Part shown: positions 1 to 30,436 of the stretch, in pieces
Position numbering within the stretch: position 1 is the stretch's first letter
Layout: each line of letters begins with the position of its first letter
Source: a virus
Taxonomy: Duplodnaviria; Heunggongvirae; Uroviricota; Caudoviricetes
DNA: 30,436 nt
IMG/VR virus record: IMGVR_UViG_2693429557_000019
Reading direction: 5' to 3' (one strand)
The notes under the pieces: generated by a model
What the model was told of the DNA's origin: nothing
Databases searched by the model: none
What the model saw: the letters and a program-made list of their open reading frames with translations, nothing else
Made by a program: the position numbers and the translations under genes

Positions 1-219
1 TCACATCCACATAATTTGCTGCCCTGACGGCAACGGGTGCGGCCTTACGGCGTGGACTTCTCCCGGCTTCACGATGTATCGCTGTACCGACTCATAAGTG
101 ATGAACGTGGCGCTGCAATTCACGTTCTGGCACTGGTGATAACGCTCTTTTGTCGTGTCAGTGATATAGCGACTTGTACGCGCATGTGCGGCATGCTGGC
201 ATAAAGGACAATGAAACAT
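1..219 (-). CDS. ogr: Late gene transcriptional activator Ogr (zinc-finger), 72 aa
   Basis: ORF-track protein contains MFHCPLCQ...CQNVNC, a Cys4 zinc-finger arrangement typical of P2 Ogr/Delta. Start trimmed to the Met giving 72 aa, the size I recall for P2 Ogr. Stop codon is the first 3 nt of the window. Lies immediately downstream of gene D as in P2. Confidence 0.88.
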   Translation of the reverse strand: MFHCPLCQHAAHARTSRYITDTTKERYHQCQNVNCSATFITYESVQRYIVKPGEVHAVRPHPLPSGQQIMWM

Positions 220-300
220 CGCGAGCACCTCTTCCGGTTTTGTTGATGGTGCCATTTTAGTTAATTTATCCTTATAAAACAAACAGATAAATAAACCACG

Positions 301-1464: not shown

Positions 1465-1943
1465 TATCCCGCCCCCGTCATACCCGTGAATTTAGTCGCC
1501 ATACTGCCAGCCTTACCGATGAGCGATTCCGCCTGTTTACCGATATCGCCATAAAGCGCGGCCAGTGACTCATCAACGCGGGTGAGCGACAGCGTAAAAT
1601 CAATTTTCCGTGGTGTGCCGTCTGCAAAGAAAATACTCCCTGTTTCACTCACCTTGCTGATGACATACATGCCGTAAATCATGCCGGTGCCATCCAGCAA
1701 CGGCCACGCCCGGCCTTCCTCTGCCATCAGTCTGAGCGTGGTCATCGTCAGCTTTCCGCCAGTCAGTTCGGGATAAAGCACACCGGCAAGTGTGATGTTC
1801 TCCTCACCTACACCGAGAAACTGATAGGCATCCCGTTTACCGATACGGGAATTTGACGGCCAGCGATAATCTGATTCACGCTGCATGGTCTGGTGTGGCA
1901 GCGTCTGGCGCATAAAAACAAACATACCTAACGCGAGCATCAT
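1464..1943 (-). CDS. U: Tail protein U, 159 aa
   Basis: 159-aa ORF between tape measure and D; size and position match P2 gpU. Confidence 0.88.
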   Translation of the reverse strand: MMLALGMFVFMRQTLPHQTMQRESDYRWPSNSRIGKRDAYQFLGVGEENITLAGVLYPELTGGKLTMTTLRLMAEEGRAWPLLDGTGMIYGMYVISKVSETGSIFFADGTPRKIDFTLSLTRVDESLAALYGDIGKQAESLIGKAGSMATKFTGMTGAG

Positions 1944-1957
1944 TTTTCGTCACCTCC

Positions 1958-4405: not shown

Positions 4406-4825
4406 TCGTGTTTCCGCTTCGCCTGAGCGCCTTTTCGCGCCATGTGATGAGTTCGGTCAGGCTCATGGGATACAGTTCTGATGGCGGCCAGTGAAATATC
4501 ACTGCCACATCCGCCATCAGGTCATCGACCGACAGATTTTTCGGAAGCGTCACTGCACCGAGTTCGGCGACAAAAAACCGACCACCTTACCGGCCAGCGC
4601 CACAAGGTCAGGCAGTTCCAGCGCGGCGACTTCCTGCTCGGTCAGCATCGGTGCCGTCATGCGCGGCAGCACCTTAATCAGTGCATCGACTTCTGAGTTT
4701 GCGACCGCAGCCAGACTGACACCGCGCAGCGTCCCCGCACTGGGTTTCATCAGCGTGACCTGTTCGATAACCTGCTCACCACGCTTGACCGGATTGTCCA
4801 GGGTAATCACATTTTCTTTGTTCAT
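4398..4825 (-). CDS. E+E': Tail assembly chaperone E+E' fusion made by -1 programmed ribosomal frameshift (about 142 aa)
   Basis: Hand translation of the minus strand: a -1 slip on T_TTT_TTG (plus-strand 4571..4577) continues VAELGAVTLPKNLSVDDLMADVAVIFHWPPSELYPMSLTELITWREKALRRSGNTNE to a TAA at 4398..4400, which overlaps the T start codon. Total length about 142 aa, the size I recall for P2 E+E'. Confidence 0.75.
4550..4825 (-). CDS. E: Tail assembly chaperone E (zero-frame product), 91 aa
   Basis: 91-aa ORF directly upstream of T and downstream of FII. Ends just after a TTTTTTG heptamer, as in P2 gene E. Confidence 0.85.
   Translation of the reverse strand: MNKENVITLDNPVKRGEQVIEQVTLMKPSAGTLRGVSLAAVANSEVDALIKVLPRMTAPMLTEQEVAALELPDLVALAGKVVGFLSPNSVQ
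4571..4577 (-). promoter_or_regulatory. Slippery heptanucleotide T_TTT_TTG for the E/E' -1 programmed frameshift
   Basis: Plus strand reads caaaaaa, i.e. TTTTTTG on the coding strand, in the X_XXY_YYZ register of the E reading frame. Confidence 0.7.
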
Positions 4826-4881
4826 GGTTTTCTCACTTCTGAATCGGGGTTAACCGGTCAGCCAGGCTGACCGGATGAAAA

Positions 4882-5400
4882 TTACAGGCCGATATTGCGG
4901 CGGTGTTGCTCCAGCCGGTCGACGCCGTTCACCTTCTCAATCATGTTGATGGTGTCGATTTCGACCAGCTCCTTACCGTCCATCGTCAGCCGGAAATAGG
5001 TGCAGACCACGGAGATTTTCGACTCGGTGTCTTCTCCCTGTTTACCCTCGCCGGTGTCGATTTCTTTCTGACGGCCACGCATGACCACCTCTACGGCCAC
5101 CGTTTCGCCGGTATCGTCACGCTGGTAAGAGCCTGCAAAACGAATCGGCACGGCATCCACACCGGTTGCGGCGTAAAGCTCCCAGATAACCGAATCCGGG
5201 AAGCCCCCGAGCGACCACTCCATTGACAGCGCATCGTCATCAAGGCCGAGGTCTACCGGTGCGCTTCCGTTCATCCCCGCACCGCGATAGTTTTCGAGTT
5301 TACGGGTCAGTTTTGGCAGCGTGACGGACTTTGCAACGCCCTGATAGCTGTAGCCGTTCAGAAAGACGTTCATTAACTTGAGTTTGCGCGGCATTGCCAT
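4882..5400 (-). CDS. FII: Major tail tube protein FII, 172 aa
   Basis: 172-aa ORF; size and position (FI-FII-E-T) match P2. Confidence 0.9.
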   Translation of the reverse strand: MAMPRKLKLMNVFLNGYSYQGVAKSVTLPKLTRKLENYRGAGMNGSAPVDLGLDDDALSMEWSLGGFPDSVIWELYAATGVDAVPIRFAGSYQRDDTGETVAVEVVMRGRQKEIDTGEGKQGEDTESKISVVCTYFRLTMDGKELVEIDTINMIEKVNGVDRLEQHRRNIGL

Positions 5401-5412
5401 CGGTCAGGCTCC

Positions 5413-6603
5413 TTAATTGCTGTTAACCGAGGTGACCAGATTTGCCAGGTATTTATCGGTAATACGCTGGCGCAGGGTCAGGTTTTCAAGAGGAGGCACC
5501 GGGGTATAGTCGTAGTCGATATACAGTTTTCCGGCCTTGAGGGTTTCCGCATCGTTGGATTCTTCGCTGAACCAGCAGGTCGCATCCACGATATAGCCGT
5601 TTGTTTTCAGCTCACGGAATTTGGCATTGATGCCGTCAACGATGTCGCGAATCAGCGTTGCGGTGATGGGCTTGTCCACCGCCCACATGTGCGCCTCAGC
5701 CATCGTGTCGGCCAGCACCTGCGCGGTGCGGGTGTAGTTTTCAAAGAGGAACAGCGGGTCATCAGAGCAGGTACGGTTACCCCAGAAGCGGAAACCGTCA
5801 CGGCGAATCAGCGTTGTGACGCCTGACTCGTTAAGCAGGTCAGCATCGGTGCCGGACTCCTGCAAATCCCAGAATACGGACGCGCTGATGCCGGTAACAC
5901 CGTTCACCCCGACGTTGGACAGCGTTTTATGCCAGCCCTGCTCCTGGTCGATTTTAGCGCGCAGACCCAGCGCACGGGCGGTGGCATACGCGGTGGCGGT
6001 GGTACTGGCGACCGTATCCCATGCGAGGAAATCCGGCCAGATGACCATCAGCTCACGCTGGCTGAAATTCTGACGGTAGGCTTTCACCTCGGAAACGGTC
6101 TTACAGCCCCATGCGCTGATATACCCGAAAGCGCGCAGCTTCTGACAGACTGATGCCAGTGCAACAGCCACCTCTTTGGTGTCCAGTCCCGGCACGCCGA
6201 GAATACGCGGTTTAACACCGGTTACCGACTCCGCCGCCAGCAGGGCTTTCAGTCCGGTGTACTGACCGTTTTCGTCGGTGGTGCCGATGATATTGGAAAC
6301 GGTCTGCGCGAGTTTCGTTTCCTCGTCGTCGCCGGTGCCGTCTTCCACACGCACGACAACGGTGACCGGTTTTGACTGGTCGGCGATGGCCTGCAACGAT
6401 GCCGCCAGCGTGCCTTTTTTACCGGCCTTTGCAATTGCGCTCTGCACATTGGTAATCAGCACCGGTTTATTGAGGGGGAAGGTTTCCGCATCCGCATCGC
6501 TGGCCGTGCAGACCATGCCGACAATGGCAGTGGATACGGTGGAAATGACGCGGGTGCCGTCGTTAATCTCCAGCACCTGCACGCCGTGATGATAGTCACT
6601 CAT
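5413..6603 (-). CDS. FI: Contractile tail sheath protein FI, 396 aa
   Basis: 396-aa ORF at the head of the FI-FII-E-T-U-D operon; size matches P2 gpFI. Confidence 0.9.
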   Translation of the reverse strand: MSDYHHGVQVLEINDGTRVISTVSTAIVGMVCTASDADAETFPLNKPVLITNVQSAIAKAGKKGTLAASLQAIADQSKPVTVVVRVEDGTGDDEETKLAQTVSNIIGTTDENGQYTGLKALLAAESVTGVKPRILGVPGLDTKEVAVALASVCQKLRAFGYISAWGCKTVSEVKAYRQNFSQRELMVIWPDFLAWDTVASTTATAYATARALGLRAKIDQEQGWHKTLSNVGVNGVTGISASVFWDLQESGTDADLLNESGVTTLIRRDGFRFWGNRTCSDDPLFLFENYTRTAQVLADTMAEAHMWAVDKPITATLIRDIVDGINAKFRELKTNGYIVDATCWFSEESNDAETLKAGKLYIDYDYTPVPPLENLTLRQRITDKYLANLVTSVNSN

Positions 6604-7013: not shown

Positions 7014-8432
7014 ATGACATACGCACTGATTGATAATTCAACTCTAACTGCAGTCCAAAGAATCGAGGGGAAAGTAAAAACAAGATCGAAGGACTCAGTA
7101 GATACAGACATAATAGCATTTGAGAACTATATACAGTCTATTTTGTTCTATGATCACGTTATCGCGGTTGATGATTATATTCCAGAGTACCGTGGGAGTA
7201 GGATTTCAAGTTTCAGAGAGATATTATTTCTTGATAAAGCACAATATGGGTTGGATGAAATTGAAAGTGAAGCAAAAAAAATATCTGATGCATTGAAACC
7301 TAAAATTCGTGGTGGAACATTTGTTAATGACGATTTTAAAAAACTAATTGAACTTCTTCAGACACATATCATATGTACATGGGACATTAGTTCAAGTGTT
7401 TATCATCTAACACTGAAGAACTTATCTGATGGAGGTAAGGAGTTTGAAAAATATGGTAACATTGCTGCTGCCATTTTTTCAGAACTGCGTGATGCTGCTG
7501 AGTCTGGTAATAGAACAAATGGCGATGTTGAACTTCTCGATCGATTTGGCAACCCTATTCGCAAGGGGTACAAAGTTCCCGGAGCAAAATGGGGGGATGG
7601 CACATCTGCTGGTGAAGCATCAGATGCAATCAAAGCATTCGTGGCTTCGCTTGTATGGCTGGCTAATCGGGCAGTATTTTATTCTCTCACAGCTAAGTAC
7701 CTTCAAGCAGATACTTTTTTATATCCATTACGTCAGGCGTATCAACAGACATATTTAAGCCAAAACTGTCAGTATGGTTTTGACTATGCTAAACATATTG
7801 TAGAAAACTTTTCCACTTCGTTAAGTCATGATCTCATTGATATTCATTCTGGTGGTAAAGCTGTAGCAACAGCAACTTCGCTTCCTTTATTTTCGGCATG
7901 GCTCGCAAAAGAAACTGGTGATCCAAGTTGTATTGTTGAAGCTGCTTATAACATAAGGGACAACAACGAATTTGTAAGGGCCCGTGAGAAAATGCGAGAA
8001 ATAAAGCGCTTGTTTGATGAAAATGAATTGCCTCAAGCTAATAAGTCAGTAAGAGCATTGCTTACTGAAGTATCGAAAGAATCAGATTATATTCGAACTA
8101 AGTATGGGCTCAAGACTAGACAAGGTGTACCTGTAACTAAGCTTGTACATGTATACAATACTGTTGCGGCTATTAATTCCCTTCCGAAACTACCGACCTT
8201 TAATTTTAAAGTTAAAGTTCCTGATTTCTTATATGATCTTAAAAAACCCAAGGGGTTTCGTGCTCTCTATCGAAATTTGACTAATGATCTTTCTACTGTG
8301 TGGTCGTTAGGAGAAGCTCGAGATATTCTTGGAAGTAAAGTTGTGATAGATAATCATGCAAGAATTTACAGTCCGAAGCATGAAGAACCGCGTTTCAAAA
8401 ACTCTCATTCCCCATATAAGAGCCCGATGTAG
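7014..8432 (+). CDS. Hypothetical 472-aa protein, AT-rich cargo gene at the FI/G (Z/fun) variable locus
   Basis: Long uninterrupted ORF on the strand opposite both flanking phage operons. Visibly lower GC than flanking phage DNA. Own promoter-like elements and RBS. I recognise no catalytic motif and no resemblance to a P2 protein. Confidence 0.8.
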   Translation: MTYALIDNSTLTAVQRIEGKVKTRSKDSVDTDIIAFENYIQSILFYDHVIAVDDYIPEYRGSRISSFREILFLDKAQYGLDEIESEAKKISDALKPKIRGGTFVNDDFKKLIELLQTHIICTWDISSSVYHLTLKNLSDGGKEFEKYGNIAAAIFSELRDAAESGNRTNGDVELLDRFGNPIRKGYKVPGAKWGDGTSAGEASDAIKAFVASLVWLANRAVFYSLTAKYLQADTFLYPLRQAYQQTYLSQNCQYGFDYAKHIVENFSTSLSHDLIDIHSGGKAVATATSLPLFSAWLAKETGDPSCIVEAAYNIRDNNEFVRAREKMREIKRLFDENELPQANKSVRALLTEVSKESDYIRTKYGLKTRQGVPVTKLVHVYNTVAAINSLPKLPTFNFKVKVPDFLYDLKKPKGFRALYRNLTNDLSTVWSLGEARDILGSKVVIDNHARIYSPKHEEPRFKNSHSPYKSPM

Positions 8433-9077: not shown

Positions 9078-11396
9078 TTATACCTGTGCCACGTTATACC
9101 AAGTCCCGTTAATGTATTTCTGCACCGGTCTGTAATATACGCCACCAATGTTATCGGCAGAGTTTGAGCCGGTATCCTGAACAATAATGCCGGAATATAC
9201 ACACCCGGACGGTGCCTGATGTGTCCATGTCATACCATTGTTCGCAGGTTTGTATGTGGCAGCACCACCAAGCCGGATATCCCGGACATAGCGTGAATCA
9301 AAGTTGCCATAGTTAGATGGTGATACCTGCCCGTTAACAGCAAAAGTGATGCTGTTATCTGTATTTCTCTGACTGTAAAAATGCCAGCCTGCATCATCAC
9401 CTAATTCAGCCACCACAGGACGACTTGAGTTTCCCCACAAATTGAATGCGGCTTCCTTCGTGGATGTATTGCTGCTGCTGACCGTGAACTTTTTCCCGCT
9501 ACCGGCACGTACTTTGGTACTTGAGACAATATCACCTGTAACACTCAGGCCATGCCCCATTGACACTCCGCCATTGGCGTTATTGATAGTCAGCGGTCTT
9601 AAGCCGTTCCATGTCCCAAATTTATCGCCAGAGGCCGTCAGCATTAAATATGTGCTGCCGCCATCATTCCTGATAAAGAATCCATAATTGCCATAAGCAA
9701 TGCGCAGACCATTAGCACTGAGTGATGTAATTTCACCTCTTGAACGGAGACCATAAGCGGAGCTGAGTGATAATTCTTCCTGAGCGTCATTGTTTCCTGT
9801 CGCCCAGCGAATTACCCCGCCCTGAACTGTTTCATGCCAGATAGTATCTCCTTCTCCACCACGAAACTTTCTGAGATATTTTTTGCCGCCTCTGGTGCCT
9901 GAACATAAGGCCGTAGACATATAGGCATTCTGGCTTCCGCCATCCTGATTAATCGTTCCGGTCATTGAGTCGCCCTGACGATTCCAGTCACGACGCCAGC
10001 CGGGGGAGTAGCCGTCCCCATGATTTATGTAAGTGAATTGCGCGCTGGTTGTACCGCCACCGCTTGATGTTGTTGGCGTGGTCACTCGGATAGTGATTGC
10101 AGATTTAGTTCCCATGACCTCGACGACACAACCAGCCAGGTGGATATCACCACATCCGGTATCCGTAATGATTTTGTTATTTGCATATGACCAGGAGCCT
10201 TTGCACATCCAGTACGGATGATTAAATGCACCACGGGAATCCAGCCATTCAATAAACTGAGCGGTTGTCCAGTTTCCGGCTTCAGTGCTCAAAGCGCCGC
10301 TATAAGCACGACAGGCACCGATATTTTTCGTGAAGGTATCCTTTCCCGGAATATCCGCACCGTTCTGATCTTTCTGAAGACGTTTTTCAGCATTGTCATA
10401 GGCAGACTTCACTGCTTTTGGCGTTGCGGCCAGCGTTTCAGAATCGCTGTTGATGGCACTACTTAGCTGGACAAGACCTTTTCGCGCTGTGGTGGCATCC
10501 TGTGCAGTGTATTTCCCGTTAGCAAGGTCATACGCTGTCTTAACCGCCTTTGGTGTTGCCGCAAGCGTTTCAGAATCGCTGTTGGTGGCGCTACTGAGCT
10601 GGACAAGACCTTTTCGCGCTGTAGTGGCGTCCTGTGCAGTGTATTTCCCGTTAGCAAGGTCATACGCTGTCTTAACCGCCTTTGGCGTTGCCGCAAGCGT
10701 TTCAGACGTGCTGTTGGTGGCACTACTGAGCTGGACAAGACCTTTTCGAGCTGTGGTAGCGTCCTGTGCGGTATATTTCCCGTTAGCAAGGTCATAGGCG
10801 GCCTTTACCGCTTTCGGCGTTGCGGCCAGTGTTTCAGACGTGCTGTTGGTCGCACTGCTTAACTGAGTAAAACCTTTTGCGGTCAGCGAGGCGTCCGGGT
10901 GACGTCGTGACTGTTCGTGCTCTGCAATTTTGTCATCAACGTAATCCTGTGTCGCCATCACCGTTGTGGTGTCAATGGTCAGCTCCACCGAGGCCACACT
11001 GCTGACGATGATGACCATGCGACAGGTCTGCGAACGCCCTGAGCCTTCGGCAAGAGCTGGCTTATAACTTTCGGCCATGTTCGCCACGGCAATTAACGTT
11101 CCCGCATCATCGTACAGGCCAAGCTCACGCATCCAGAAACCGCCCACCTCCGGCGGAATAACCAGCTCTGCGATAATATAATTACTGTTTCGTTTGTCCT
11201 GGCTGATTTTGTTCAGCGTATGTCGCCAGACTTCGTGGATAAGCCCGGTCTGTCCGGCATCCGGGACAGGCAATTTACCACCGCCATCCCCGACGGCCAT
11301 CGTGGTAATGTTGACCTTCCGCCCTCCCGGTGCGGTTGCCGCTGCCAGCTTTGCTGCACCGGCAGTGGTGATAACGGTTCTGAATTTTGTGCTCAT
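9078..11396 (-). CDS. H: Tail fiber protein H, 772 aa
   Basis: N-terminus MSTKFRTVITTAGAAKLAAA is P2 H-like as I recall it. Contains tandem 44-aa repeats (GLVQLSSATNS...TPKAVK.AYD) of the phage tail-fiber repeat type. Positioned between I and G. Confidence 0.9.
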   Translation of the reverse strand: MSTKFRTVITTAGAAKLAAATAPGGRKVNITTMAVGDGGGKLPVPDAGQTGLIHEVWRHTLNKISQDKRNSNYIIAELVIPPEVGGFWMRELGLYDDAGTLIAVANMAESYKPALAEGSGRSQTCRMVIIVSSVASVELTIDTTTVMATQDYVDDKIAEHEQSRRHPDASLTAKGFTQLSSATNSTSETLAATPKAVKAAYDLANGKYTAQDATTARKGLVQLSSATNSTSETLAATPKAVKTAYDLANGKYTAQDATTARKGLVQLSSATNSDSETLAATPKAVKTAYDLANGKYTAQDATTARKGLVQLSSAINSDSETLAATPKAVKSAYDNAEKRLQKDQNGADIPGKDTFTKNIGACRAYSGALSTEAGNWTTAQFIEWLDSRGAFNHPYWMCKGSWSYANNKIITDTGCGDIHLAGCVVEVMGTKSAITIRVTTPTTSSGGGTTSAQFTYINHGDGYSPGWRRDWNRQGDSMTGTINQDGGSQNAYMSTALCSGTRGGKKYLRKFRGGEGDTIWHETVQGGVIRWATGNNDAQEELSLSSAYGLRSRGEITSLSANGLRIAYGNYGFFIRNDGGSTYLMLTASGDKFGTWNGLRPLTINNANGGVSMGHGLSVTGDIVSSTKVRAGSGKKFTVSSSNTSTKEAAFNLWGNSSRPVVAELGDDAGWHFYSQRNTDNSITFAVNGQVSPSNYGNFDSRYVRDIRLGGAATYKPANNGMTWTHQAPSGCVYSGIIVQDTGSNSADNIGGVYYRPVQKYINGTWYNVAQV
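10392..10898 (-). repeat. About 3.8 tandem copies of a 132-bp (44-aa) near-identical repeat inside gene H
   Basis: The string gtttcag recurs at 10435, 10567, 10699 and 10831 (period 132 bp) with near-identical flanking sequence. Protein shows four repeats of AQDATTARKGLVQLSSATNS.SETLAATPKAVK.AYDLANGKYT. Confidence 0.85.
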
Positions 11397-12838: not shown

Positions 12839-12842
12839 GGTT

Positions 12843-15054: not shown

Positions 15055-15334
15055 TAAGTAACCTCGTGATGGTTTTCTCGCGCTGAGCTTCACGCTTCGC
15101 GGCGTTCTCCAGTTCCTGACGCAGTGCCACCTGCGCCAGCTCGTTTTTGTCTGCCCTGGTGAGGGCAACATGAAGCTGGTTTTTCAGCATGGTGATGGTC
15201 GTCTGCTGTTCACTGGCGACGTTGTTCGCCCTGTCCAGCAAGGCGCGCAGGCTGGCATTTTTGTGTTTCACCAGAAACAGACCGGCCACCGCCAGCGATA
15301 ACAACACAACCAGCACAATCATCAGTTTTGACAT
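14909..15334 (-). CDS. lysB: LysB, inner-membrane spanin (Rz-like), 141 aa
   Basis: N-terminal transmembrane segment (LMIVLVVLLSLAVAGLFLV) followed by a coiled-coil-rich periplasmic domain. Position after lysA matches P2. Confidence 0.8.
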   Translation of the reverse strand: MSKLMIVLVVLLSLAVAGLFLVKHKNASLRALLDRANNVASEQQTTITMLKNQLHVALTRADKNELAQVALRQELENAAKREAQREKTITRLLNENEDFRRWYGADLPDAVRRLHQRTACADASDCPQRLPESEPLPDAGQ

Positions 15335-15747
15335 GGTTCCCGCCCCTCAAGACGCTGACGGCAGGCCGTACGTATCAGCCGGAAAAACAGCGATGCCACG
15401 AGATAAATCAGTGCGGTAAAAATCCACCCGGCAGCGACCAGCGAGATAAACGTCGCCACCATCACCATCAGAGCCGCTGCCCGTCTGCGCCACGGCACCG
15501 GCTGCAAAAACAGCGACGTGACAATCTTCACGGCCAGCGATTCCGGCGGCAGCTCCCGCCCGTAGCGTTCCAGCACATACTCCGCGGCATACACGCCGAC
15601 ACCACCGGCAATCACACAGATAACCGTCGCCAGAATCGCCCATGCAGCGACAAAACTGACGGCCACGCTCTGCGGGTAAATCAGGGACAGTGCCAGCATC
15701 AGCGCCAGCGACACGTTCAGCATCAGTGAAAGGGATAATTTCTTCAT
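15322..15747 (-). CDS. lysA: LysA, membrane protein affecting lysis timing, 141 aa
   Basis: Highly hydrophobic 141-aa ORF with several predicted TM segments, between K and lysB as in P2. Confidence 0.75.
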   Translation of the reverse strand: MKKLSLSLMLNVSLALMLALSLIYPQSVAVSFVAAWAILATVICVIAGGVGVYAAEYVLERYGRELPPESLAVKIVTSLFLQPVPWRRRAAALMVMVATFISLVAAGWIFTALIYLVASLFFRLIRTACRQRLEGREPCQN

Positions 15748-15761
15748 GGTGTTTACTCCGT

Positions 15762-16540: not shown

Positions 16541-16543
16541 GCG

Positions 16544-16747
16544 TTACTCCCACAGATTGACAGTTTCAGCCACGGGCGCGGTCTGAACGTCGGGCAGTTC
16601 GACGGCGGTGCCGTGTGGCAGCACCGCCCCCAGTTCAGCCAGTCCCGGATTTGCGGCGAGCACGGCCTCGACCACGCCCTCAGTGCGCCCGTAATACCGA
16701 ACACAAATGGCGTCGAGCGTGTCGCCCTGTAGCGCAAAGGTCTTCAT
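16544..16747 (-). CDS. X: Tail protein X, 67 aa
   Basis: ORF-track ORF trimmed to the Met at MKTFALQGDTLD, giving 67 aa, the size I recall for P2 gpX. ATG confirmed as cat at 16745..16747 on the plus strand. Confidence 0.8.
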   Translation of the reverse strand: MKTFALQGDTLDAICVRYYGRTEGVVEAVLAANPGLAELGAVLPHGTAVELPDVQTAPVAETVNLWE

Positions 16748-17256: not shown

Positions 17257-17355
17257 GACTACCTCTGAAAAGTCGGGCGGTGGACGCCGGTGCAGTGTCA
17301 GGTGATTCACCGTCACTGACCGGCGTGCCGCCCTGGCGCGGGGCGCATTCGGTTG

Positions 17356-18099
17356 TTAACTGGCTTTCTTTTTCGGGCGTCCACGTTTTGCCGGTGTCAC
17401 GCTCCGGGTCTTACGCGGAGTGCGGGTGGCCGCTTTGGGCTGCGGCTCCGGCTTCGGTTTCAGCTCCCGCTCCAGTCGTTCAATCTCTTTTTTGACGCCT
17501 GCCTGACAGTCGAGCTGTGTCGCACGTTGCAGGTGTACCAGCGCACCTGCGGCATCACCAGCGTCACGCAGAAACAGACCGGTGATTTTGTGCAGCTTTG
17601 CGCGCACTTCATCAGGCATGTCAGCCGTGGCGGTCAGTTCGAGGGTGTCCGTCAGCAGGCGGGGATCCACAGACTCACCGGCAGCGTGAGCGCGCATGGC
17701 CGCAAGCGCCACCTCCTCGGTGAACATGTACGGCGGGGTGCGGCGGTGTTTACCCGGCATGGTCAGACCGTACTTCAGGGCATAACGGGCAATCTCCAGC
17801 GCACCGGCAATATCGCCGGTATCCAGACGCCACAGCATGACCGTCATCAGAATGTCATCCTGTGCACCTTTGCCCTGCTCCAGCACGCCGTTCACCCACG
17901 GCAACCAGAACGGCAGCAGTTCGCGTTTTTTCGCGGCCTTCAGCTCTTTTGAATAAATCGCTTTCAGTGTGCGCTGGTCTGCGGCCAGCTTGACCAGCAT
18001 CTGCTCATAGACAGTTGCATGTCGCAGCGGGGCGGCTTCCCGCTGCGCGGTCATCGCTGCCGAGACCCGCATCATGTGGCGCTGTGCGGGACTCGTCAT
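17356..18099 (-). CDS. M: Terminase endonuclease (small) subunit M, 247 aa
   Basis: 247-aa ORF with a basic C-terminal tail; size and N-M-L order match P2. Confidence 0.88.
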   Translation of the reverse strand: MTSPAQRHMMRVSAAMTAQREAAPLRHATVYEQMLVKLAADQRTLKAIYSKELKAAKKRELLPFWLPWVNGVLEQGKGAQDDILMTVMLWRLDTGDIAGALEIARYALKYGLTMPGKHRRTPPYMFTEEVALAAMRAHAAGESVDPRLLTDTLELTATADMPDEVRAKLHKITGLFLRDAGDAAGALVHLQRATQLDCQAGVKKEIERLERELKPKPEPQPKAATRTPRKTRSVTPAKRGRPKKKAS

Positions 18100-18102
18100 C
18101 GG

Positions 18103-19175
18103 TTACGCTCCCGGCTCTGCGGTCGCTTTAGCCGGTGTGGAGAAATCACCGACCTTAATTTTTTCCACCAGACAACCGGCGGCGTAGTCCTCCACCACGT
18201 AATCAATGTTCATTGACTCGTAGTTCTCCACGCGGTCGAGTTTCGGGTTTTCCACAATCACGCGGCGATGGCTGTCATCCATGTAGTAGATGGACAGGTT
18301 TTCCAGCTTCGTGATGAGCATCGCATCCGCCGGGAAGTACGGGACGCGTACCGCCGGCAGGTTACCGATGCGTTTCTGGCTGATGATGACGTCAGCGGCC
18401 AGCATCTCGCTGTTATCCTGCTCCTTGTTGACGATAGGGAAATACTTGTCCGCCAGTAGCTGACGCCCCACAATCACCACAAGGTCAGGGTCTTCCTGAT
18501 ACCAAGGTTCAATCAGGTTGTTGGTCGCATCCATCACCAGTGCATCGAGGCTTACATAATCACCGCCCTTACCCACGCGGATAACCTCAGAGGTGGTGCG
18601 GCCTTCCTCGTCAGTGACCTTGCTCATCACGCGCGCCGGGGCTTCATTCGGTATTTCTGCAGCCAGCCGACCGCCACATCCTGCAGCATCGGATTACTGT
18701 TGCGGTCAGAGGTTTCGGCACGCTTCACGCCGTTAAAACCGGCCATGATGAAATCAAGGGACTGGCGTTTGATAATGGCGTTACGGATACGGAGCTGGAA
18801 ATCCTGATAACGCGCCCACAGGTCAAGCGTTTTGTAGCGGATATAAAAATCGAAGTTAACCTGGTCGCATTCGTACTTGTTTGACGCCAGCTTCGAGAAG
18901 TCCTTCGGCTGACGCTCGGTGCCACCGGCGGTGTCGGTGGTGCTGGCGATGGAGCCGGTGACACCGATGCCAATTTTTTCCCCTTTCATTTCACTGACCG
19001 GCACAATGTTGATGCGGGTCAGAAAGTCAGAGGACTCCTGCATGGTGTTCATCAGGGTCTGGGTGACCGACGGTTCAACGGTGAATTTTTTCGACACATC
19101 ACCGGCGTCGATGCCGTTCAGCTCGGCAACACGGGACAGGTAAGCATTAAATTTAAAGCGGGTTTCCTGGCGCAT
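18103..19175 (-). pseudogene. N: Major capsid protein N, disrupted by a 1-nt frameshift (two ORFs of 182 aa and 175 aa)
   Basis: Two adjacent same-strand ORFs (18627..19175 and 18103..18630) in different frames together give about 357 aa, the size I recall for intact P2 gpN. The upstream ORF ends LQKYRMKPRRA-stop while the other frame reads NEAPARVMSKV across the same nucleotides, so a single missing base near plus-strand 18647..18648 accounts for the break. Confidence 0.75.
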
Positions 19176-19233
19176 AGTTTTTCCTGAAATTAAGGGTTAA
19201 TCGTGAAGGTTTTCCCGGACTGACTGACGCCGG

Positions 19234-20088
19234 TCAGCAGTTCGTCATCAGGGCGTCACCGCCACCACCGGTGGCCTTGCTGCGGCGCTGCTGGGTCAGA
19301 CTTTCGGTGTGGTCGAGACTGTTTTTCAGGCGGGTGAATGCCTGGCTGGTTTCATCCGCCCTGTCAGTCACCTCCTGCTTAAGTGCAGAAAAGGCGGTTT
19401 CCATCTCAGCGAGGCGCTGCTCAGTGGCGCTCAGTTTTTCCTGCACATGTTCAGCAACAGCGGTCACCGCTTCATGCACGTCATTCAGACGGGCATCATC
19501 GCTGGCCTGTTTGCGGCCAAAAATGGATTTCACCTTTTCGGTCAGGGCGGTGAACACGGTTTCAGGCAGGTCTTCAAATTCCAGCTCAACAGGCGTTGCC
19601 ACTGAAATCAGGTTTTCAGGGCTTAATTTGAAGCGGTTCAGGGGGTTGTGTTTTGCCGTGCGGCAGAATTCCAGGTATTCCGTGCCGAGGCTTGCCGGGT
19701 CATCGGTGACGGCCAGACCCACCAGATAACATTTGCCGGTGTTGGCAAAGTTCGGCTGAATTTCCATTGAGGTGTAGACCTTCTGCGCGGCCTTGTTCAT
19801 CGCGATAAGGTCATCGGTCGGGGTGATTTTCGCAAACAGCGCCCATTTGCCTTTCAGCGCCGAATCATCGTCAATCTTTTCGGCCTTCAGTTCGGCCACA
19901 TCGCCATAACGCTTAAAAATACCGTCAGGCAGGATGCCGCGCAGATGTTCCAGGTTAATGCGGCAACCATAGACACGCGGGTCAAAGGTTTCGGCCATTT
20001 CCTGAATATCCTGCGCACTGATGACACGCCCGTCACAGGTGTCACCCTCAACGCCGATACGAAAGAATTTTGAGACTTTTTTTGCCAT
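19234..20088 (-). CDS. O: Capsid scaffolding protein O, 284 aa
   Basis: ORF trimmed to the Met at MAKKVSKFF (cat at 20086..20088), giving 284 aa as I recall for P2 gpO. Divergent from P, as in P2. Confidence 0.85.
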   Translation of the reverse strand: MAKKVSKFFRIGVEGDTCDGRVISAQDIQEMAETFDPRVYGCRINLEHLRGILPDGIFKRYGDVAELKAEKIDDDSALKGKWALFAKITPTDDLIAMNKAAQKVYTSMEIQPNFANTGKCYLVGLAVTDDPASLGTEYLEFCRTAKHNPLNRFKLSPENLISVATPVELEFEDLPETVFTALTEKVKSIFGRKQASDDARLNDVHEAVTAVAEHVQEKLSATEQRLAEMETAFSALKQEVTDRADETSQAFTRLKNSLDHTESLTQQRRSKATGGGGDALMTNC

Positions 20089-20261
20089 TGTCAGGAGTCC
20101 TGAATAGTGATTAGAGGAGTCACATGTCGGCATCAGTTTCCCGACGATGCGCATCCTCCGCCATCAGTCCCGGATGGTTTATCACTGACACAACAGCACA
20201 TTAGCGAATCGCGGGGCGCGACTCAGTAGCCTTGCCGTGTATTCATCACGGCGAGGTATTC

Positions 20262-23068: not shown

Positions 23069-23073
23069 ACATC

Positions 23074-23095
23074 GCCGCCTGCGGGCGGCTTTTTT
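23074..23095 (+). terminator. Rho-independent terminator after Q
   Basis: Perfect 6-bp GC stem gccgcc / ggcggc with a 4-nt loop (tgcg), followed by a run of six T. Confidence 0.6.
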
Positions 23096-23254: not shown

Positions 23255-23439
23255 CGCCCGCTTCATGGGGCGGTTTTAATGCAGTTGCATGAACACTCCA
23301 AGAGCACGCCAGCGCTAGTGATAACTAACAATAAAAGCGACTTCTGACGCATGCAAATCCATGCACATGATGGCATTTTTCATGATCTATGCGGTATGCT
23401 ATCCGCTTCAATTTTTAACACTTGTTAAGGGAACTAGAC

Positions 23440-24582
23440 ATGGACATTATTGATTTAAAATCTCAACTAGAAAATGAAGATAATGCCAAGAAAAGAGCAG
23501 AGTTGCTTGCTCAGCTAGAGGTGATAAAGCAAAACGCTGAAGAGCAAATTCGTGCTGAGCAAAAGGATGTGGATTTTGAGACCAAAGAATTTACCGTTGA
23601 GTTATTAGTTAATAAGTATCATAACGGATTAGAGGATGATACTAACGAACTCTTTGTTCCTGATTATCAAAGGGATTTTGTTTGGAGTGAAAAAAGACAA
23701 TCAAAATTGATAGAGTCTTTGATTTTGGGTTTTCCTATACCATATATATTTATAGCAGATGTTCTCTCCGAAGATCCCGATTTAGATGGGCGAATTGAGA
23801 TTGTTGATGGCTCACAACGAGTTAGGACTATACACGCTTTTATCCAAAATGAATTAGTTTTACAAGACCTGAAATCTTTAGACGTCCTTAATGGTTTCAA
23901 ATTCCAAGATTTACCATTATCACGTCAACGTCGTTTCATGAGAATTCCTGTCCGCGTTATAGAATTGAGTTCTAAATGCAATGAAGAAACCCGTAGAGAT
24001 CTTTTTGAGCGTATTAACTCTGGCAGCGATATATTGAAAGATATGGAAGTCCGTAAAGGATCAGAACTTGGTTCAACAAATTTATATACACAGGTTATTA
24101 AGCCATGCTCAACAATACCTAAATTTAAAGAATTAGCACCTTTATCTCAGACTAAAGAAAAACGAGATGAACGGTTAGAATTTACATTAAGATTCTTTGC
24201 CTACGTAGATAAGTACAAGAACTTTGATCATTCCGTACGGGATTTTCTAAATGACTATATGTCAGAAAATCGAGATATAGACGAAACTAAACAAAACTCA
24301 ATGAAACAAGAGTTTGCTAATGTTCTATCTTTTGTTGAAAACTATTTCCCAGCAGGATTCAAGAAAACTATTACTGCAAAATCTACACCTCGAGTTAGAT
24401 TCGAATCTCTCGCTGTTGGCGCAGCACTTGCATTACGTGAAGTCCCTGACCTTGTTCCCAAGAACTTAGATTGGCTAAGCTCAGAAGAATTCAAACGATT
24501 GACCACTTCCGACGGAGCTAATAGTCGCGTGAAGGTAATTGAACGAATTGAATATGTTCGGGATAAATTATTAGAGGATTAA
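23440..24582 (+). CDS. DUF262 / ParB-like domain protein (GmrS-like N-terminal domain, no recognisable HNH/DUF1524 nuclease), 380 aa
   Basis: Contains VPDYQRDFVWS and IVDGSQRVRTI, which fit the (I/V)PxYQRxxxW and DGQQR signatures of the DUF262 ParB/Srx-fold domain. N-terminal coiled-coil. AT-rich. Start taken at the ATG at 23440, 8 nt after an aaggga Shine-Dalgarno (the ORF track begins at a TTG at 23422). Confidence 0.85.
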   Translation: MDIIDLKSQLENEDNAKKRAELLAQLEVIKQNAEEQIRAEQKDVDFETKEFTVELLVNKYHNGLEDDTNELFVPDYQRDFVWSEKRQSKLIESLILGFPIPYIFIADVLSEDPDLDGRIEIVDGSQRVRTIHAFIQNELVLQDLKSLDVLNGFKFQDLPLSRQRRFMRIPVRVIELSSKCNEETRRDLFERINSGSDILKDMEVRKGSELGSTNLYTQVIKPCSTIPKFKELAPLSQTKEKRDERLEFTLRFFAYVDKYKNFDHSVRDFLNDYMSENRDIDETKQNSMKQEFANVLSFVENYFPAGFKKTITAKSTPRVRFESLAVGAALALREVPDLVPKNLDWLSSEEFKRLTTSDGANSRVKVIERIEYVRDKLLED

Positions 24583-24583
24583 C

Positions 24584-25264
24584 ATGGATCGTTTTCGTGA
24601 GGATTTTGACGAAAGGTCAGGAGAGATCTTGGCCTATTTGGATCTTTTGAAATTTATTGAGTATGCCGGTGCAGAACTGATATCAGCTGATGATAAAGAA
24701 CATAAGTTCTCCATTACTGCTCAATCACGAAAAACTCTAAAGGGAGCAGTATATATACTGTTATATAACCTCATTGAATCAACAATGAGAGAAGCTATCT
24801 GCCTTATTCATGAGACTATTTATGATAGAAACGTAGAATTTGACAAACTCAGGAAAAATCTCAGGTCAGAAATATTAAAAAGATTAAAAAATGAATCTGT
24901 AAATGTTGAAAGTTTAGTTAATCACCTTACCAAAGGTATATCTTGCGGTATATCTTATGGCACGTTCAACAAAAAGAAAATATTCTCAGGAAATATTGAT
25001 AGAGAGGAAATCAAAGAAAAATCGAAAATATATGGTTTTTCTACACATTCCGATTACACTCACACTAAACATGGTGAAAAATTAGCCACTGTTAAACAAC
25101 ATCGTAATGATTTATCTCATGGCAATGTATCATTTGCTGAGATTGGAAAAAATGTTTCATATCAGGACTTAGAGAATATTTCATTAGAAGTAATCGCCTA
25201 TCTTGATGCTATCGTGAATAATATAGAGCACTATATAAATAATAATGAATATTTAGAACAATAG
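24584..25264 (+). CDS. Putative HEPN-domain protein (Rx4H motif), 226 aa
   Basis: Translationally coupled to the upstream gene: TAA at 24580..24582 and ATG at 24584, with agagga 6-11 nt upstream. C-terminal region carries HRNDLSHG, fitting the HEPN R-x4-6-H motif. AT-rich. The HEPN call is motif-based inference only. Confidence 0.7.
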   Translation: MDRFREDFDERSGEILAYLDLLKFIEYAGAELISADDKEHKFSITAQSRKTLKGAVYILLYNLIESTMREAICLIHETIYDRNVEFDKLRKNLRSEILKRLKNESVNVESLVNHLTKGISCGISYGTFNKKKIFSGNIDREEIKEKSKIYGFSTHSDYTHTKHGEKLATVKQHRNDLSHGNVSFAEIGKNVSYQDLENISLEVIAYLDAIVNNIEHYINNNEYLEQ

Positions 25265-25270
25265 TTATAA

Positions 25271-25294
25271 GGCCTGTAAAGCAGGCCATTTTAT
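25271..25294. terminator. Candidate bidirectional terminator between the convergent HEPN gene and the methyltransferase gene
   Basis: Stem ggcctg / caggcc with a 5-nt loop, followed by attttat on the plus strand and an A/T-rich stretch on the other side. Sits exactly between the two convergent stop codons. Confidence 0.5.
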
Positions 25295-26319
25295 CATTCT
25301 AAATGGTTCTTGATTGATTGCCCAATTGCTTTTCCTAGTTCCACAGGAACAGCATTACCTATCATTTTCCCAATACTTCTTATAACAAACTTGTTTTTGT
25401 CTTCTACAAAAATATAATCCATCGGGAAAGTTTGCAATAAAGCAGCCTCTCTAAGAGAAATCGCTCTATGCTGTTCTGGATGTCCAAAACGCCCATTCCC
25501 GAAACCATAACAAAGAGTTGTAATTGTTGGACTTGGCTTATCCCAAGACATGCGCCCATATACACTAGCATACCCTTTACCGCTGGATTTCATATGACAA
25601 GCGGCAACCAACTCTTTCGGCCAGTCCTTCCATGTACCACCAGGAACAGAGTGTATAATTCTTTTTTTATTAATCGGATTTAATTTACTGGCTCTATGTA
25701 ATATATCATTTGGATCTGTTTGGCCATCTTCTAATGGAGGAAGATTTCCTATTGCATCTCTAACTGTTTTCAAAATAACATCGTCACGTTTTACTAACTC
25801 AATCGCCCCCAATTTTGAGGCCAACAATACATGACGGGAACGGTTTTGTGGGATTCCATATTCGACACAATCAATCTTAGACGCCCAAACATAATAGCCC
25901 AACTTTAACAATGAATTATAAAAATCATTATAAACTTTATGTTTAGTTACATCAGGAACGTTCTCCATTGTTACGATTTCTGGAGATACTTCGCGAATTA
26001 AACGTTCGAACTCATAAAGAAGAGGCCATTTTTTATCATCAGCCTTATCTTTTCCTTGAGTATATTTTGAAAAAGGTTGGCAAGGTGCGCATCCTGCCAA
26101 TACTTTTACAGACGCATCACCATAAAGCCTCAGCAGTTCCTCTTTTGTTACTTTAGCGATATCTTGCTCAATAAACTTAGATTTATTGTTTCTTTCATAG
26201 GGAAACCTACATTCCCCCTCAAGGTCAATGCCTGCAACGACATCAAGCCCCGCAAGCTGCAAACCATGAGTTAATCCGCCAGCACCACAAAAAAGGTCTA
26301 TCACCTTTACAGTCATCAC
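25294..26319 (-). CDS. DNA (cytosine-5)-methyltransferase, 341 aa
   Basis: Conserved C5-MTase motifs seen in the translation: FCGAGG (motif I, AdoMet binding), GCAPCQPFS (motif IV with catalytic Pro-Cys), ENVPDV (motif VI) and QNRSR (motif VIII). AT-rich. Confidence 0.9.
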   Translation of the reverse strand: MMTVKVIDLFCGAGGLTHGLQLAGLDVVAGIDLEGECRFPYERNNKSKFIEQDIAKVTKEELLRLYGDASVKVLAGCAPCQPFSKYTQGKDKADDKKWPLLYEFERLIREVSPEIVTMENVPDVTKHKVYNDFYNSLLKLGYYVWASKIDCVEYGIPQNRSRHVLLASKLGAIELVKRDDVILKTVRDAIGNLPPLEDGQTDPNDILHRASKLNPINKKRIIHSVPGGTWKDWPKELVAACHMKSSGKGYASVYGRMSWDKPSPTITTLCYGFGNGRFGHPEQHRAISLREAALLQTFPMDYIFVEDKNKFVIRSIGKMIGNAVPVELGKAIGQSIKNHLE

Positions 26320-26402: not shown

Positions 26403-27896
26403 TTAACGCTTCACTGAGTTTGACTCTAATACTGTTGAGAATCCCGACCACTCATCAGCGAGCGGGTAAGTGAATTTTTTCCCGTCATAATTTACGGTTG
26501 CCCCACGCGCCAGCACCTCAAGCTCCCATCGCTGCGGCCTGATACCGTTCTGAGCAAGGTCAACGCGGATACGGGTAATTTGCATTCGTTCCGACCGGGT
26601 CAGTCTGGCCGATGGCGCTATTTCATGCGGTTTTAACGGGCTTCCGTTTCTTTGCTGACGGTTTGGTCTTCTCAGTCCGTGTTTTAATGCACCTCTGAGC
26701 GCCCTCACAACCTCCGGGTCATTCCATTCGATAACACCGTCATCTACCAGATTAAGCACTGCTGCGGCGTGCTCAGAAGGTGTGGGAGCCGGTAACGAAG
26801 TATCACCACCAGTGAGCTTTCCACAGTTATTGACAGGACTCCGAGGCGCGGCGATGCCGCTTTTTAAAGTCAAAGGCTCAACGACCGGCACTTTCGGAAC
26901 AATGCGCCAGTCCGTCGTTCTGGTGATATGAATATGACGCGCGCCGAGATGCGGCGCGTAAATGCCGACCACTCTCTCGACTTCTTCCTCGTACTCGTTA
27001 ACTTCATCCGACGGACTACGGGCGACCCTGACAGTCTGACAATCGCGCGGGACATTTGCCCCACCCTGCGCGCTGATATACAGCGCAAAATCACCACTGT
27101 CTGCGGCGGCGCGTGCAGCCTCGACGCGCTCGTCAAACTCATCAGCAATGCTGACGCCGCGAGGCAATTTGCGTAGTTCACGGTAAGCCCCCATTGTCGG
27201 CAGGCCAACCGTTTTAAATTGCGGAATGCGCCACGTTGACGCCCATGCGGTAACAGCCGCGGCAGTATCTTTCAGCGGTCTGCCGCTATCGTTATCGAGC
27301 TGCCCATCCAGTGCATAGCCGTCGATATTTTTTGAGATGTATTTCGCGATATACCCCGCAGCACCGCCCCGATTAAGATGTTTTGCCTGAAAACGGTTTC
27401 GCGCAGCTCCTCTTTCGTCGCCATCCTCTTTGAGCGCGTAGCGACGCATGATTTCGATAATCTGGTTACGCTGGCGTGGATTACAAAAAAGCATCATATG
27501 CCAGTGCGGCGTTCCGTCGTGGTGTGGCTCGACGACTCGCAAACCGTAGACCTGTAAATCATTATCCTTGAATGCCGTGCGCATCAGGCTCCAGATACGG
27601 CAGAGATAACGCTGCGCATCCTTTGGATTAAATGCCTCATCGTTCCAGCCGTGATTTAGCTGGACGGTTTTACTTTCGCCTTTTCCAACCTGACGTGTCG
27701 GGTGATACTTTGACGGCGCGGTCAGCGTGATAAACATCCCCACATCACCTTCTGCGGCGGCGTAACGCTCAATACCGGCAATGGTGTTCATCAGCTCCAT
27801 CCGGCGAATTTCAGGATTAGAAATACTGCCCATCACCTTACTGATAAGGTCGATGCGCTCGCCTGTTTCCCTGTTTTCGAGATCACACGATTTAAG
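26403..27896 (-). pseudogene. A: Replication initiation protein A (rolling-circle HUH endonuclease), 5'-truncated at the IS21-family junction
   Basis: ORF carries the HUH motif (TPHWHMMLF) and a Tyr/Lys motif (YIAKYISKN) of Rep-type nickases. It is 526 aa against about 761 aa that I recall for P2 gpA. The first roughly 28 codons of the ORF-track ORF (to 27983) are read through IS-end tandem repeats and are not genuine gene A sequence. Junction placed near 27897 from memory of the P2 gpA sequence. Confidence 0.7.
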
Positions 27897-27910
27897 ATGC
27901 AAAATGGCAT

Positions 27911-28025
27911 CTGAATCGATCGCAGTTTGGCATTCGAATCGATCATGATTTGGCATCCATCTCCGATCACAGTTTGGCATCACAATCGATCACGATTTGG
28001 CATACTTCCGATCATTGATTGGAAT
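27911..28025. repeat. Five tandem 22-24 bp direct repeats (consensus about cgatcaNNRtttggcat), probable multiple terminal repeats of the IS21-family left end
   Basis: Units end in ttggcat at 27933, 27956, 27980 and 28003, and in ttggaat at 28025. A diverged sixth copy (aaaatggcat) ends at 27910. The array lies immediately upstream of istA. Confidence 0.6.
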
Positions 28026-28098
28026 TCGCCAGTCACTCCGGGAATTAACTCTTTTCACCACAGTCTCCATTGCCGTGTTTAAACCAGTGGAGACGTCA

Positions 28099-29664
28099 AT
28101 GTCCAAAAAGAGAAAATCCAGGAGCACTATGGAAACTTGTTTTAAGATCCTTCAGCTCAAGTTCGATAAGAAGCTGACTAACCGTTGTATCGGACTGACG
28201 TTACACATCAGCGCCTCAACCGTTTTTGAGGTTCTTGCCCGCTTCAAAGCCTCTTCTCTGTCATGGCCATTACCTGCGGATATATCCCATGACACGCTGG
28301 AGAAACTCATTTTCCCGCCCAAAGACACCTCTGCGTCAGAGCTTGTTATGCCTGACATGCTGTACTTCGATACGGAAATGAGAAAACCTGGCGTGACGCG
28401 CCAACTGTTGTGGATGGAATACAAGGCACAGGCGGGTGACAAAGCGATGGGATACTCACACTTCTGCCGTTGCTACCGGAAGTGGAAAAAAACGCGACGC
28501 CTCTCCATGCGACAGGAGCATCGTGCTGGCGAAAAGCTCTTTATCGACTTCTGTGGTCCTACGGTCCCTGTTATTAATCCGGACACCGGAGAGATACGCC
28601 GCGTGGCAATCTTCGTGGCTGTAATGGGGGCGTCCAACTATACCTATGTTGAAGCGTGCGAAGGTCAGGACATGATGTCATGGTTAAATGCCCACAGCCG
28701 TTGCCTGACCTTCCTGGGCGGCGTACCGAAGCTGCTCATCCCCGATAACCTCAGAAGCGCAGTGAAAAAAGCCGATCGCTATGAGCCTGTCATCAACGAC
28801 AGTTATCAGGCGCTGGCTGAGCACTATGGCACGGTTATTATCCCGGCCCGCCCGCGCAAACCTAAAGATAAACCAAAAGCAGAAAACGGCGTCCTCATCG
28901 TCGAGCGATGGCTTCTTGCCCGCATCCGTAATGAAACCTTCCACACGCTCAGGGCGCTGAATGCACGCCTTCGGGAGTTGCTGACGGACATGAATAACCG
29001 ACCAATGAAGGGATACGGTAATCAAACCCGCGCAGAACGCTTCCGCATGCTGGATGCACCAGCACTCTCTCCGCTGCCTCTGGAGCCTTATGAATACACG
29101 GAATACAAAGCCGTGAAGGTTGGCCCTGACTACCACGTTGAATATGCCCGTCACTGGTACTCCGTTCCACACGAACTGGTCGGTCAGCGTCTGTCACTGA
29201 AGGTGGGGCAGTCGGTGGTACAGCTCTGGCACAAGGGGCAGTGTGTGGCGCAACATCCGCGCAGCACACATGAATATAAACACACAACCAATCCGCTTCA
29301 CATGCCAGAACGCCACCGGCGGCATGGGACATGGACACCGGAACGCCTTATCGAGCAGGGAAACCGTACAGGTCCGTCCACAGGCCGGGTGGTTGAATCC
29401 ATGCTGAAAGCCAAACCCCATCCGGAGCTGGCTTACCGTGCAGTCCTGGGTCTGCTGGCACTTCAGAAAAAATACGGCCCGGAACGGCTGGAAAAGGCCT
29501 GTTACGTTGCCCTGCACTATAACGCCCCGGACAGACGCTTTATCGACAATCTGCTGCGTCATCATCGGGATAACGTTGAGCTTCCGTTATCCCGCCAGGG
29601 CGAACAACATCCGGCATATGCTTCAGAGCATGAAAACCTGCGTGGTCCTGGCTACTACCACTGA
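28099..29664 (+). CDS. istA: IS21-family transposase IstA (DDE), about 521 aa
   Basis: N-terminal basic/HTH-like region. Candidate DDE residues in FIDFCG, LLIPDN and AENGVLIVERW. Followed 16 nt later by istB. Start taken at the first ATG (MSKKRKS) of the ORF-track ORF, which begins at a TTG at 27997. Confidence 0.85.
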   Translation: MSKKRKSRSTMETCFKILQLKFDKKLTNRCIGLTLHISASTVFEVLARFKASSLSWPLPADISHDTLEKLIFPPKDTSASELVMPDMLYFDTEMRKPGVTRQLLWMEYKAQAGDKAMGYSHFCRCYRKWKKTRRLSMRQEHRAGEKLFIDFCGPTVPVINPDTGEIRRVAIFVAVMGASNYTYVEACEGQDMMSWLNAHSRCLTFLGGVPKLLIPDNLRSAVKKADRYEPVINDSYQALAEHYGTVIIPARPRKPKDKPKAENGVLIVERWLLARIRNETFHTLRALNARLRELLTDMNNRPMKGYGNQTRAERFRMLDAPALSPLPLEPYEYTEYKAVKVGPDYHVEYARHWYSVPHELVGQRLSLKVGQSVVQLWHKGQCVAQHPRSTHEYKHTTNPLHMPERHRRHGTWTPERLIEQGNRTGPSTGRVVESMLKAKPHPELAYRAVLGLLALQKKYGPERLEKACYVALHYNAPDRRFIDNLLRHHRDNVELPLSRQGEQHPAYASEHENLRGPGYYH

Positions 29665-29680
29665 CAGAAGGAACAACCGT

Positions 29681-30436
29681 ATGAGTGATAATCTGTTAAA
29701 CAAACTGACCCAACTGAAACTCCCGGCGATGGCCGGGAGCCTGATACGGCAACGGGAAACGCCTCAGACTTACGACGAACTGTCGTTCGAGGAAAGGCTG
29801 ACACTGCTGGTTGATGACGAGCTTCTGAGCAGAGAAAACAGTCGTGTGGCACGGTTGAGAAAAAATGCCTGCCTGAAATATCAGGCAACACCGGAAGGGC
29901 TGCGTTATCCGGCCTCAAGAGGTCTGCGGGCTGAACAGATGAGGGAACTGCTGAACGGCCACTACATAATCCACAGGAAAAACCTACTGATAACCGGTCC
30001 GACAGGATGCGGTAAGAGCTGGATAGCCAATGCGCTGGGCGAACAGGCATGTCGACAGAAATACAGCGTCCGGTACTGTAGAACCGGGCGATTACTGGAA
30101 CAGTTGGCTCAGGGACGTGTTGATGGCAGTTGGCTGAAATATCTGAAACAGTTGCAAAAAATACAGGTTCTAATCCTGGACGATCTGGGGCTGGAACAGT
30201 TAAGTAACGCCCAGTGTAATGACCTTCTGGAGATCACAGAGGATCGTTACGGACAAAGCAGCACGATAGTGGTAAGCCAGTTCCCGGTAGATAAATGGCA
30301 TGGTCTGATGGAGAACCCAACAACAGCAGATGCCATCCTGGACAGACTGGTACATAACTCACACAGAGTGGTCCTTCAGGGAGAGTCCCTGAGGAAAAAT
30401 CCCCCGACAGTGGAAAGCAGCGAAAAAACGAGTTAA
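29681..30436 (+). CDS. istB: IS21-family ATP-binding helper protein IstB, 251 aa
   Basis: Walker A motif GPTGCGKS and Walker B-like VLILDDLG. Start ATG at 29681 preceded by gaaggaa. Stop TAA is the last 3 nt of the window. Confidence 0.9.
   Translation: MSDNLLNKLTQLKLPAMAGSLIRQRETPQTYDELSFEERLTLLVDDELLSRENSRVARLRKNACLKYQATPEGLRYPASRGLRAEQMRELLNGHYIIHRKNLLITGPTGCGKSWIANALGEQACRQKYSVRYCRTGRLLEQLAQGRVDGSWLKYLKQLQKIQVLILDDLGLEQLSNAQCNDLLEITEDRYGQSSTIVVSQFPVDKWHGLMENPTTADAILDRLVHNSHRVVLQGESLRKNPPTVESSEKTS

Follow-up and report, generated by a model that had tools for sequence, protein, structure and literature searches.

The window analysed here, i.e. the whole stretch of 30,436 nucleotides of DNA, very probably represents a P2-like (Peduovirus-type) prophage of Shigella sonnei in which the major capsid gene N was broken by a genuine, spontaneous and clonally inherited one-base deletion, with an ISSso4 element entering the replication gene A at a later time. 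The deletion is a real, recent and lineage-fixed inactivating mutation, and the resulting lesion is a case of ordinary prophage decay, not of programmed recoding or sequencing error. It is a deterministic sequence difference, for which chance is not at issue. What had been an ambiguous flag (frameshift or error) becomes a firm call of a real N pseudogene in S. sonnei. Both halves of N are already known from public annotations, where they are called as separate CDSs; the allele itself was not found described, as searches of the literature on S. sonnei P2-like prophages and on the pseudogenes of strain 53G yielded nothing specific. It constitutes one more prophage inactivation in a pathogen known for the accumulation of pseudogenes and IS elements and will not surprise the specialist.

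Gene N and the missing base

Gene N is present as two open reading frames (ORFs) on the minus strand. The 5′ fragment (18627..19175) encodes 182 residues ending in ...LQKYRMKPRRA-stop, namely native residues 1-176 followed by six aberrant ones (MKPRRA), with the TGA stop codon at 18627..18629. The 3′ fragment (18103..18630) encodes 175 residues when read from the GTG at 18630, or 174 residues when read from the ATG at 18627, the latter corresponding to native residues 184-357. In Pfam searches with the family PF05125 (Phage_cap_P2, 327 positions) the 182-aa ORF covers positions 1-170 (E 2.5e-73) and the 3′ ORF positions 178-327 (E 5.5e-69), so that the two ORFs are complementary halves of one domain and one gene. 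In the window these 182-aa and 175-aa ORFs stand in place of an uninterrupted N ORF of about 357 codons.

The surroundings are those of a P2-type N gene. N lies between gene O and gene M, collinear with annotated relatives, which is the position of gpN. Its upstream neighbour O (capsid scaffold/protease; 19234..20088, minus strand, inside the ORF 19234..20154) is intact and collinear with the 284-aa GPO CDS of E. coli EC6622 without a single indel, and the downstream neighbour M (terminase small/endonuclease subunit; 17356..18099, minus strand) is intact as well, with 247 residues and thus the same length as in EC6622. With the late genes on the minus strand, the order in the window is ogr, D, U, T, E/E′, FII, FI, a 472-aa accessory ORF, G, H, I and J, followed by W, V, S, R, the lysis genes, X, L, M, N and O. 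Beyond O come the plus-strand genes P and Q, an accessory block of three genes and finally the replication gene A. Throughout the late region the window is collinear with P2-like phages and prophages, with which it shares 97-99% DNA identity.

Among the megablast matches listed for the phage and E. coli collections, each full-length match spans 1182 bases against 1181 bases of the query. A five-way alignment of the window with two E. coli prophages, phage PhiR44_1 and Yersinia phage L-413C depicts a single gap in the window, which reads TACCG-AATGAAG vs TACCGCAATGAAG in the other four. According to this alignment and to the indel listing against EC6622, one G of the plus strand is absent between 18648 and 18649, corresponding to the coding-strand C in TACCG[C]AATGAAG, and the deletion falls at codon 177 of 357. 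When the base is restored, a 357-aa ORF is obtained whose protein product is present elsewhere as an exact sequence and aligns with P2 gpN (7jw1_A) over residues 1-357 with 4 differences (E 1e-236). The first-pass annotation had proposed that N is split by a one-base frameshift, which the single gap and the repaired ORF bear out, and alignment to intact P2-like N genes, as suggested there, pinpoints the indel; its estimate of about 18647..18648 was off by one base, with the sequence context CGAATGAAG given correctly.

Compared with P2 gpN (PDB 7jw1, PF05125, HK97 fold), the repaired protein has the same 357 residues apart from the four substitutions, whereas N as found in the window is interrupted at codon 177 and ends after 176 native residues. 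Split by a one-nucleotide deletion, it is therefore a pseudogene of the gpN family (PF05125) and not a functional member. It should be annotated accordingly, as a pseudogene rather than as two "major capsid protein" CDSs, and prophage-prediction tools that score the element as intact are wrong.

Age of the deletion, gene A and the accessory block

Among the complete E. coli records that include the N stretch, 1,475 in number, not one has the deletion, because its source is Shigella, which is absent from that collection; this absence fits a private and recent origin in the Shigella lineage. The deletion can be typed by the k-mer GAAATACCGAATGAAGCC vs GAAATACCGCAATGAAGC. An intact 357-aa N is found in the two sister prophages L009 (CP065611.1), which shares 99.97% identity with the window, and L011, with 99.96%. 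Each of the nine comparison loci free of the deletion has the G, so the deletion is the derived state, and it is linked to the derived allele 10749A, which is found in the window and in the S. sonnei draft contig L006 (GCA_001260795.1) only. Intact and broken versions are separated by 5 substitutions in 19.8 kb. One SNP pair is phylogenetically incompatible and involves the error-prone long-read assembly L010. The very high identity of the sisters (99.96-99.97%) together with the IS-rich flanks suggests that the deletion arose after the prophage had entered the S. sonnei lineage.

L011 (GCA_031665775.1, positions 1..5800) lacks the cargo and gene A past the portal gene Q; in their place stand transposase genes, IS630-like and of the IS3 family, next to the chromosomal ilvB/tisB region. 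It appears that in another strain the same prophage was truncated independently by IS elements.

In the window strain gene A is disrupted. In relatives it encodes 761-765 residues; here only a 3′ remnant is found (26403..27897, minus strand), which covers only positions 133-321 of Phage_GPA and whose frame is cut at 27897/27898. The remainder of the window (27898..30436, plus strand) is an ISSso4-like element of the IS21 family inserted in gene A, with istA and the start of istB, which runs past the window end. It contains the rve and Mu-transposase C-terminal domains (Pfam) and is 100% identical to the locus H92, annotated as IS21-like ISSso4 istA/istB. Its left end at 27898 starts with TGCAAAATGGCAT and shows repeated TTTGGCAT motifs, the right end being located beyond the window. 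The junction was compared with the L009 sequence and reads GATTTAAGATGCAAAATGGC. L006 carries the N deletion together with an intact gene A of 765 residues, from which it follows that the deletion is older than the ISSso4 insertion. The insertion occurred later, in a sublineage, and renders the prophage of the window strain doubly defective. Both lesions are possible lineage markers, and the IS may mark a sublineage.

In the preferred reading, the deletion would have been inherited clonally by a large set of S. sonnei isolates and been fixed by drift in a clonal, IS-rich and pseudogene-accumulating pathogen. The prophage shares with the IS-driven pseudogenisation of Shigella an ISSso4 copy, 100% identical to annotated copies, that cuts gene A, while the N lesion differs in being a point deletion that is not IS-mediated. 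The host is a clonal, host-restricted pathogen with gene decay, a picture into which the N frameshift fits as well. In Enterobacteriaceae, cryptic prophages of the P2-like kind are frequent (PMC6823313). Like these, the window prophage has been inactivated, in its case through a point frameshift and, in the window strain, an IS; contrary to classical P2-like remnants it is far less decayed, with about 30 genes intact, one frameshift and one IS, and it still has an intact sister copy at 99.97% identity.

The accessory block between Q and A (23422..26319) occupies the gpQ-gpA hotspot. It consists of three intact genes, namely a GmrSD_N/DUF262 protein (23422..24582, plus strand; NsnA / PD-T4-2_A-like, PADLOC NsnA 1.7e-54 and PD-T4-2_A 2.5e-35, and Pfam), a HEPN_MAE_28990 protein (24584..25264, plus strand; Pfam) and a divergently oriented C5 cytosine methyltransferase (25294..26319, minus strand; PADLOC DrmMII/MTase_II about 1e-90, and Pfam). 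In its make-up the block resembles a defence cassette. In P2-like phages the gpQ-gpA locus has been documented as a defence hotspot, and the E. coli strain to which PD-T4-2 is native is protected by it against T4 (PMC9122126, PMC9519451). It is plausible that the host benefits from the cargo and, as the first-pass annotation had it, that the prophage is retained for it.

A more far-reaching proposal is that of selected domestication, in which loss of N was favoured or tolerated and the host keeps a locked-in prophage with its defence cargo, or with its tail and lysis modules, without productive killing. The intact PD-T4-2/Nsn-like GmrSD_N and HEPN pair and the methyltransferase in a hotspot of documented defence function, the protection of its native strain from T4 by PD-T4-2 (PMC9122126, PMC9519451) and the many isolates that carry the deletion would all be in keeping with it. 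On the other hand, differential decay pointing to such selection is not observed: the other head genes O, P, Q, M and L are no less intact than the genes of the tail, lysis and cargo. Moreover, only 5 substitutions in 19.8 kb separate the window from its sisters with intact N, a span too short for neutral decay to become visible, so that selection for the cargo need not be invoked. S. sonnei is clonal, so that hitch-hiking or drift is enough. Taken together, selected domestication is unlikely.

In a more specific form of the same idea, the N deletion is a first domestication step that created a head-less, non-transmissible unit (in the isolates with intact A), with a tailocin-like particle made from the intact contractile tail plus the lysis cassette, the defence pair kept and an advantage conferred on the clade. 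We consider this very unlikely. Still less likely is a variant in which the two halves of N, coupled via TGATG, reassemble into a working capsid protein.

Consequences for the capsid

The structure of the P2/P4 procapsid has revealed that gpN has the canonical HK97 fold, that its sir loop comprises residues 183-224 and that Met184 contacts Sid, as reflected by the sir mutation M184T (PMC7552001). Placed on this structure, the break lies at the end of helix α4, just ahead of the sir loop (183-224), and the interval 177-183 separates the N-arm, the E-loop, the spine helix and α4 from the sir loop, the A-domain and the remaining strands of the P-domain. Translation from the N start would yield a product of 182 residues with the N-arm, the E-loop, the spine helix and most of helix α4, followed by MKPRRA-stop. 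Missing from such a product would be the sir loop, the A-domain in its entirety and, of the P-domain of the HK97 fold, the C-terminal strands. Given the fold and the essential role of N, it should form no capsomers; without capsomers the prophage would be left without heads of its own and without heads for a P4-type satellite. The proposal in the first-pass annotation that the prophage is unable to build capsids is therefore well founded and is reinforced by the IS21-family insertion in gene A, a lesion not mentioned there.

Induction with mitomycin C may be uninformative as a test, since classical P2 is not SOS-inducible and the immunity region is located outside the window.

The stop codon of the 5′ fragment overlaps the native, in-frame Met184 codon in the sequence TGATG, and the C-terminal half of N could thus, as far as the sequence goes, be produced by coupled re-initiation at this site. 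A conceivable consequence is a split but functional capsid protein, where both halves are made, the second by termination-reinitiation at TGATG, and assemble non-covalently into a working HK97 fold. Apart from the overlap itself, it speaks for such an arrangement that the two pieces together lack native residues 177-183 only and that the cut coincides with a domain boundary, the end of α4 before the sir loop. Yet these seven native residues are lost and six foreign ones are gained at the end of a helix, and the restart residue Met184 is the very residue that contacts Sid and is altered in the sir mutant M184T (PMC7552001). Furthermore, a split N is used by no relative, neither in the listed phage records nor in the 1,475 E. 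coli records, and a recent lesion to which the window strain adds another inactivating event, in gene A, is the pattern expected of decay. A working split capsid is accordingly highly improbable.

Sequencing error and recoding

A sequencing or assembly error, by which one base of an intact N was lost through chemistry or the consensus caller, has to be weighed as well, given that single-base indels are the commonest type of consensus error and that such errors do exist in public data, as seen in L010 with its 16 single-base differences including the N site. The missing base, in contrast, is a lone C flanked by G and A and lies outside any homopolymer. The alignment with EC6622 comprises 517 substitutions but, across 23.3 kb of late genes, no frame-breaking indel apart from the N deletion, so the window is not error-ridden; a 12-nt in-frame insertion in lysA is the one further coding indel, the remaining ones being intergenic. 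A total of 396 contigs (540 index blocks) carry the exact 182-aa product, including the KYRMKPRRA tail, and 377 contigs carry the exact 174-aa downstream product. The 396 contigs derive from two independent assembly sources (NCBI and Logan assemblies), are named Shigella sonnei by these sources and include strain 53G; the largest contig bearing the truncated product has 4,988,504 bp. Within positions 10630-27897 (17.3 kb) L006, an independent assembly, is identical to the window, deletion included. The deletion co-segregates with a derived SNP, and near-identical prophages have been assembled with an intact N, which shows that the site can be read correctly. An error is hence scarcely credible. 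Of the two branches left by the first-pass annotation, that of a real mutation is upheld by the recurrence on 396 contigs, the identity of L006 and the co-segregating SNP, and that of a homopolymer sequencing error has to be abandoned, the base being a lone C and the 23.3 kb being free of any other frame-breaking indel. The resequencing that was to restore a single ORF has in effect been repeated hundreds of times across assemblies, yielding the truncated N each time.

The 12-nt insertion in lysA (15322..15747) is located at 15688..15699 and leads to a protein of 141 residues vs 137 in EC6622. The 141-aa form is also present in most other related loci, and the insertion therefore represents allelic variation and not damage.

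L006 and the window differ by 14 mismatches, for which an independent origin of the deletion in L006 was considered and rejected: all of them are confined to 10533-10629, within the internal repeat of the tail-fibre gene H, and probably are an artefact of a collapsed repeat. The encoded H protein of L006 is shorter than that of the window (728 vs 772 residues). Gene H (9078..11396) harbors internal direct repeats of about 88% identity at 10395..10881, and the length of its product varies among short-read drafts (728, 720, 764 and 681 residues vs 772 in the window). Either assembly collapse of the repeat or genuine variation between prophages is the probable cause.

The long-read assembly L010 (GCA_900448635.1, UFZL01000002.1) contains the same prophage with 16 single-base insertion sites relative to the window, 15 of which lie apart from the N site. 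In its gene calls many late genes (P, O, M, R, H and A) are split, and N is intact. Unlike the window, it illustrates true consensus error.

The two N frames overlap by 67 nt (18627..18693, minus strand), where both are open and where a -1 shift at any point would restore the downstream frame. A script scan of this zone revealed neither an X XXY YYZ heptamer in any phase nor a run of at least 5 identical bases. The two-frame architecture of N is seen in 0 of the 1,475 E. coli records, and the listed phage records have a continuous N; as relatives have one continuous N ORF, there is no conserved recoding signal. The view of the first-pass annotation that the split is not programmed thus holds, on account of both the missing heptamer and the absence of the split from relatives. 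Programmed recoding, in which a -1 ribosomal frameshift or transcriptional slippage in the overlap provides useful amounts of full-length gpN, is next to impossible: a -1 shift at CGA-A would yield exactly the wild-type ...YRNEAP..., the two frames do overlap over 67 nt and the tail chaperone genes E/E+E′ of P2-type phages do rely on a programmed -1 frameshift, but the overlap offers neither a slippery heptamer nor a homopolymer of five or more bases, the two-ORF arrangement occurs in none of the E. coli or listed phage records, the lesion is recent and derived rather than a conserved signal, and a T=7 head takes several hundred copies of gpN, for which background frameshifting provides too little.

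The likeness of N to the tail-chaperone frameshift genes (P2 E/E+E′, lambda G/GT) consists in two overlapping ORFs in different frames within a P2-type late operon. The frameshift sites of the latter are kept across relatives and use a slippery heptamer, whereas the N split comes without either and is a derived, private lesion.

The accessory ORF of 472 residues is found on the plus strand (7014..8432) at the Z/fun accessory locus, between the tail sheath gene FI and the tail-fibre assembly gene G. It has no match in Pfam or PADLOC and is conserved in E. coli EC6622 as a 'hypothetical protein'. It is a candidate for an uncharacterised moron or defence gene.
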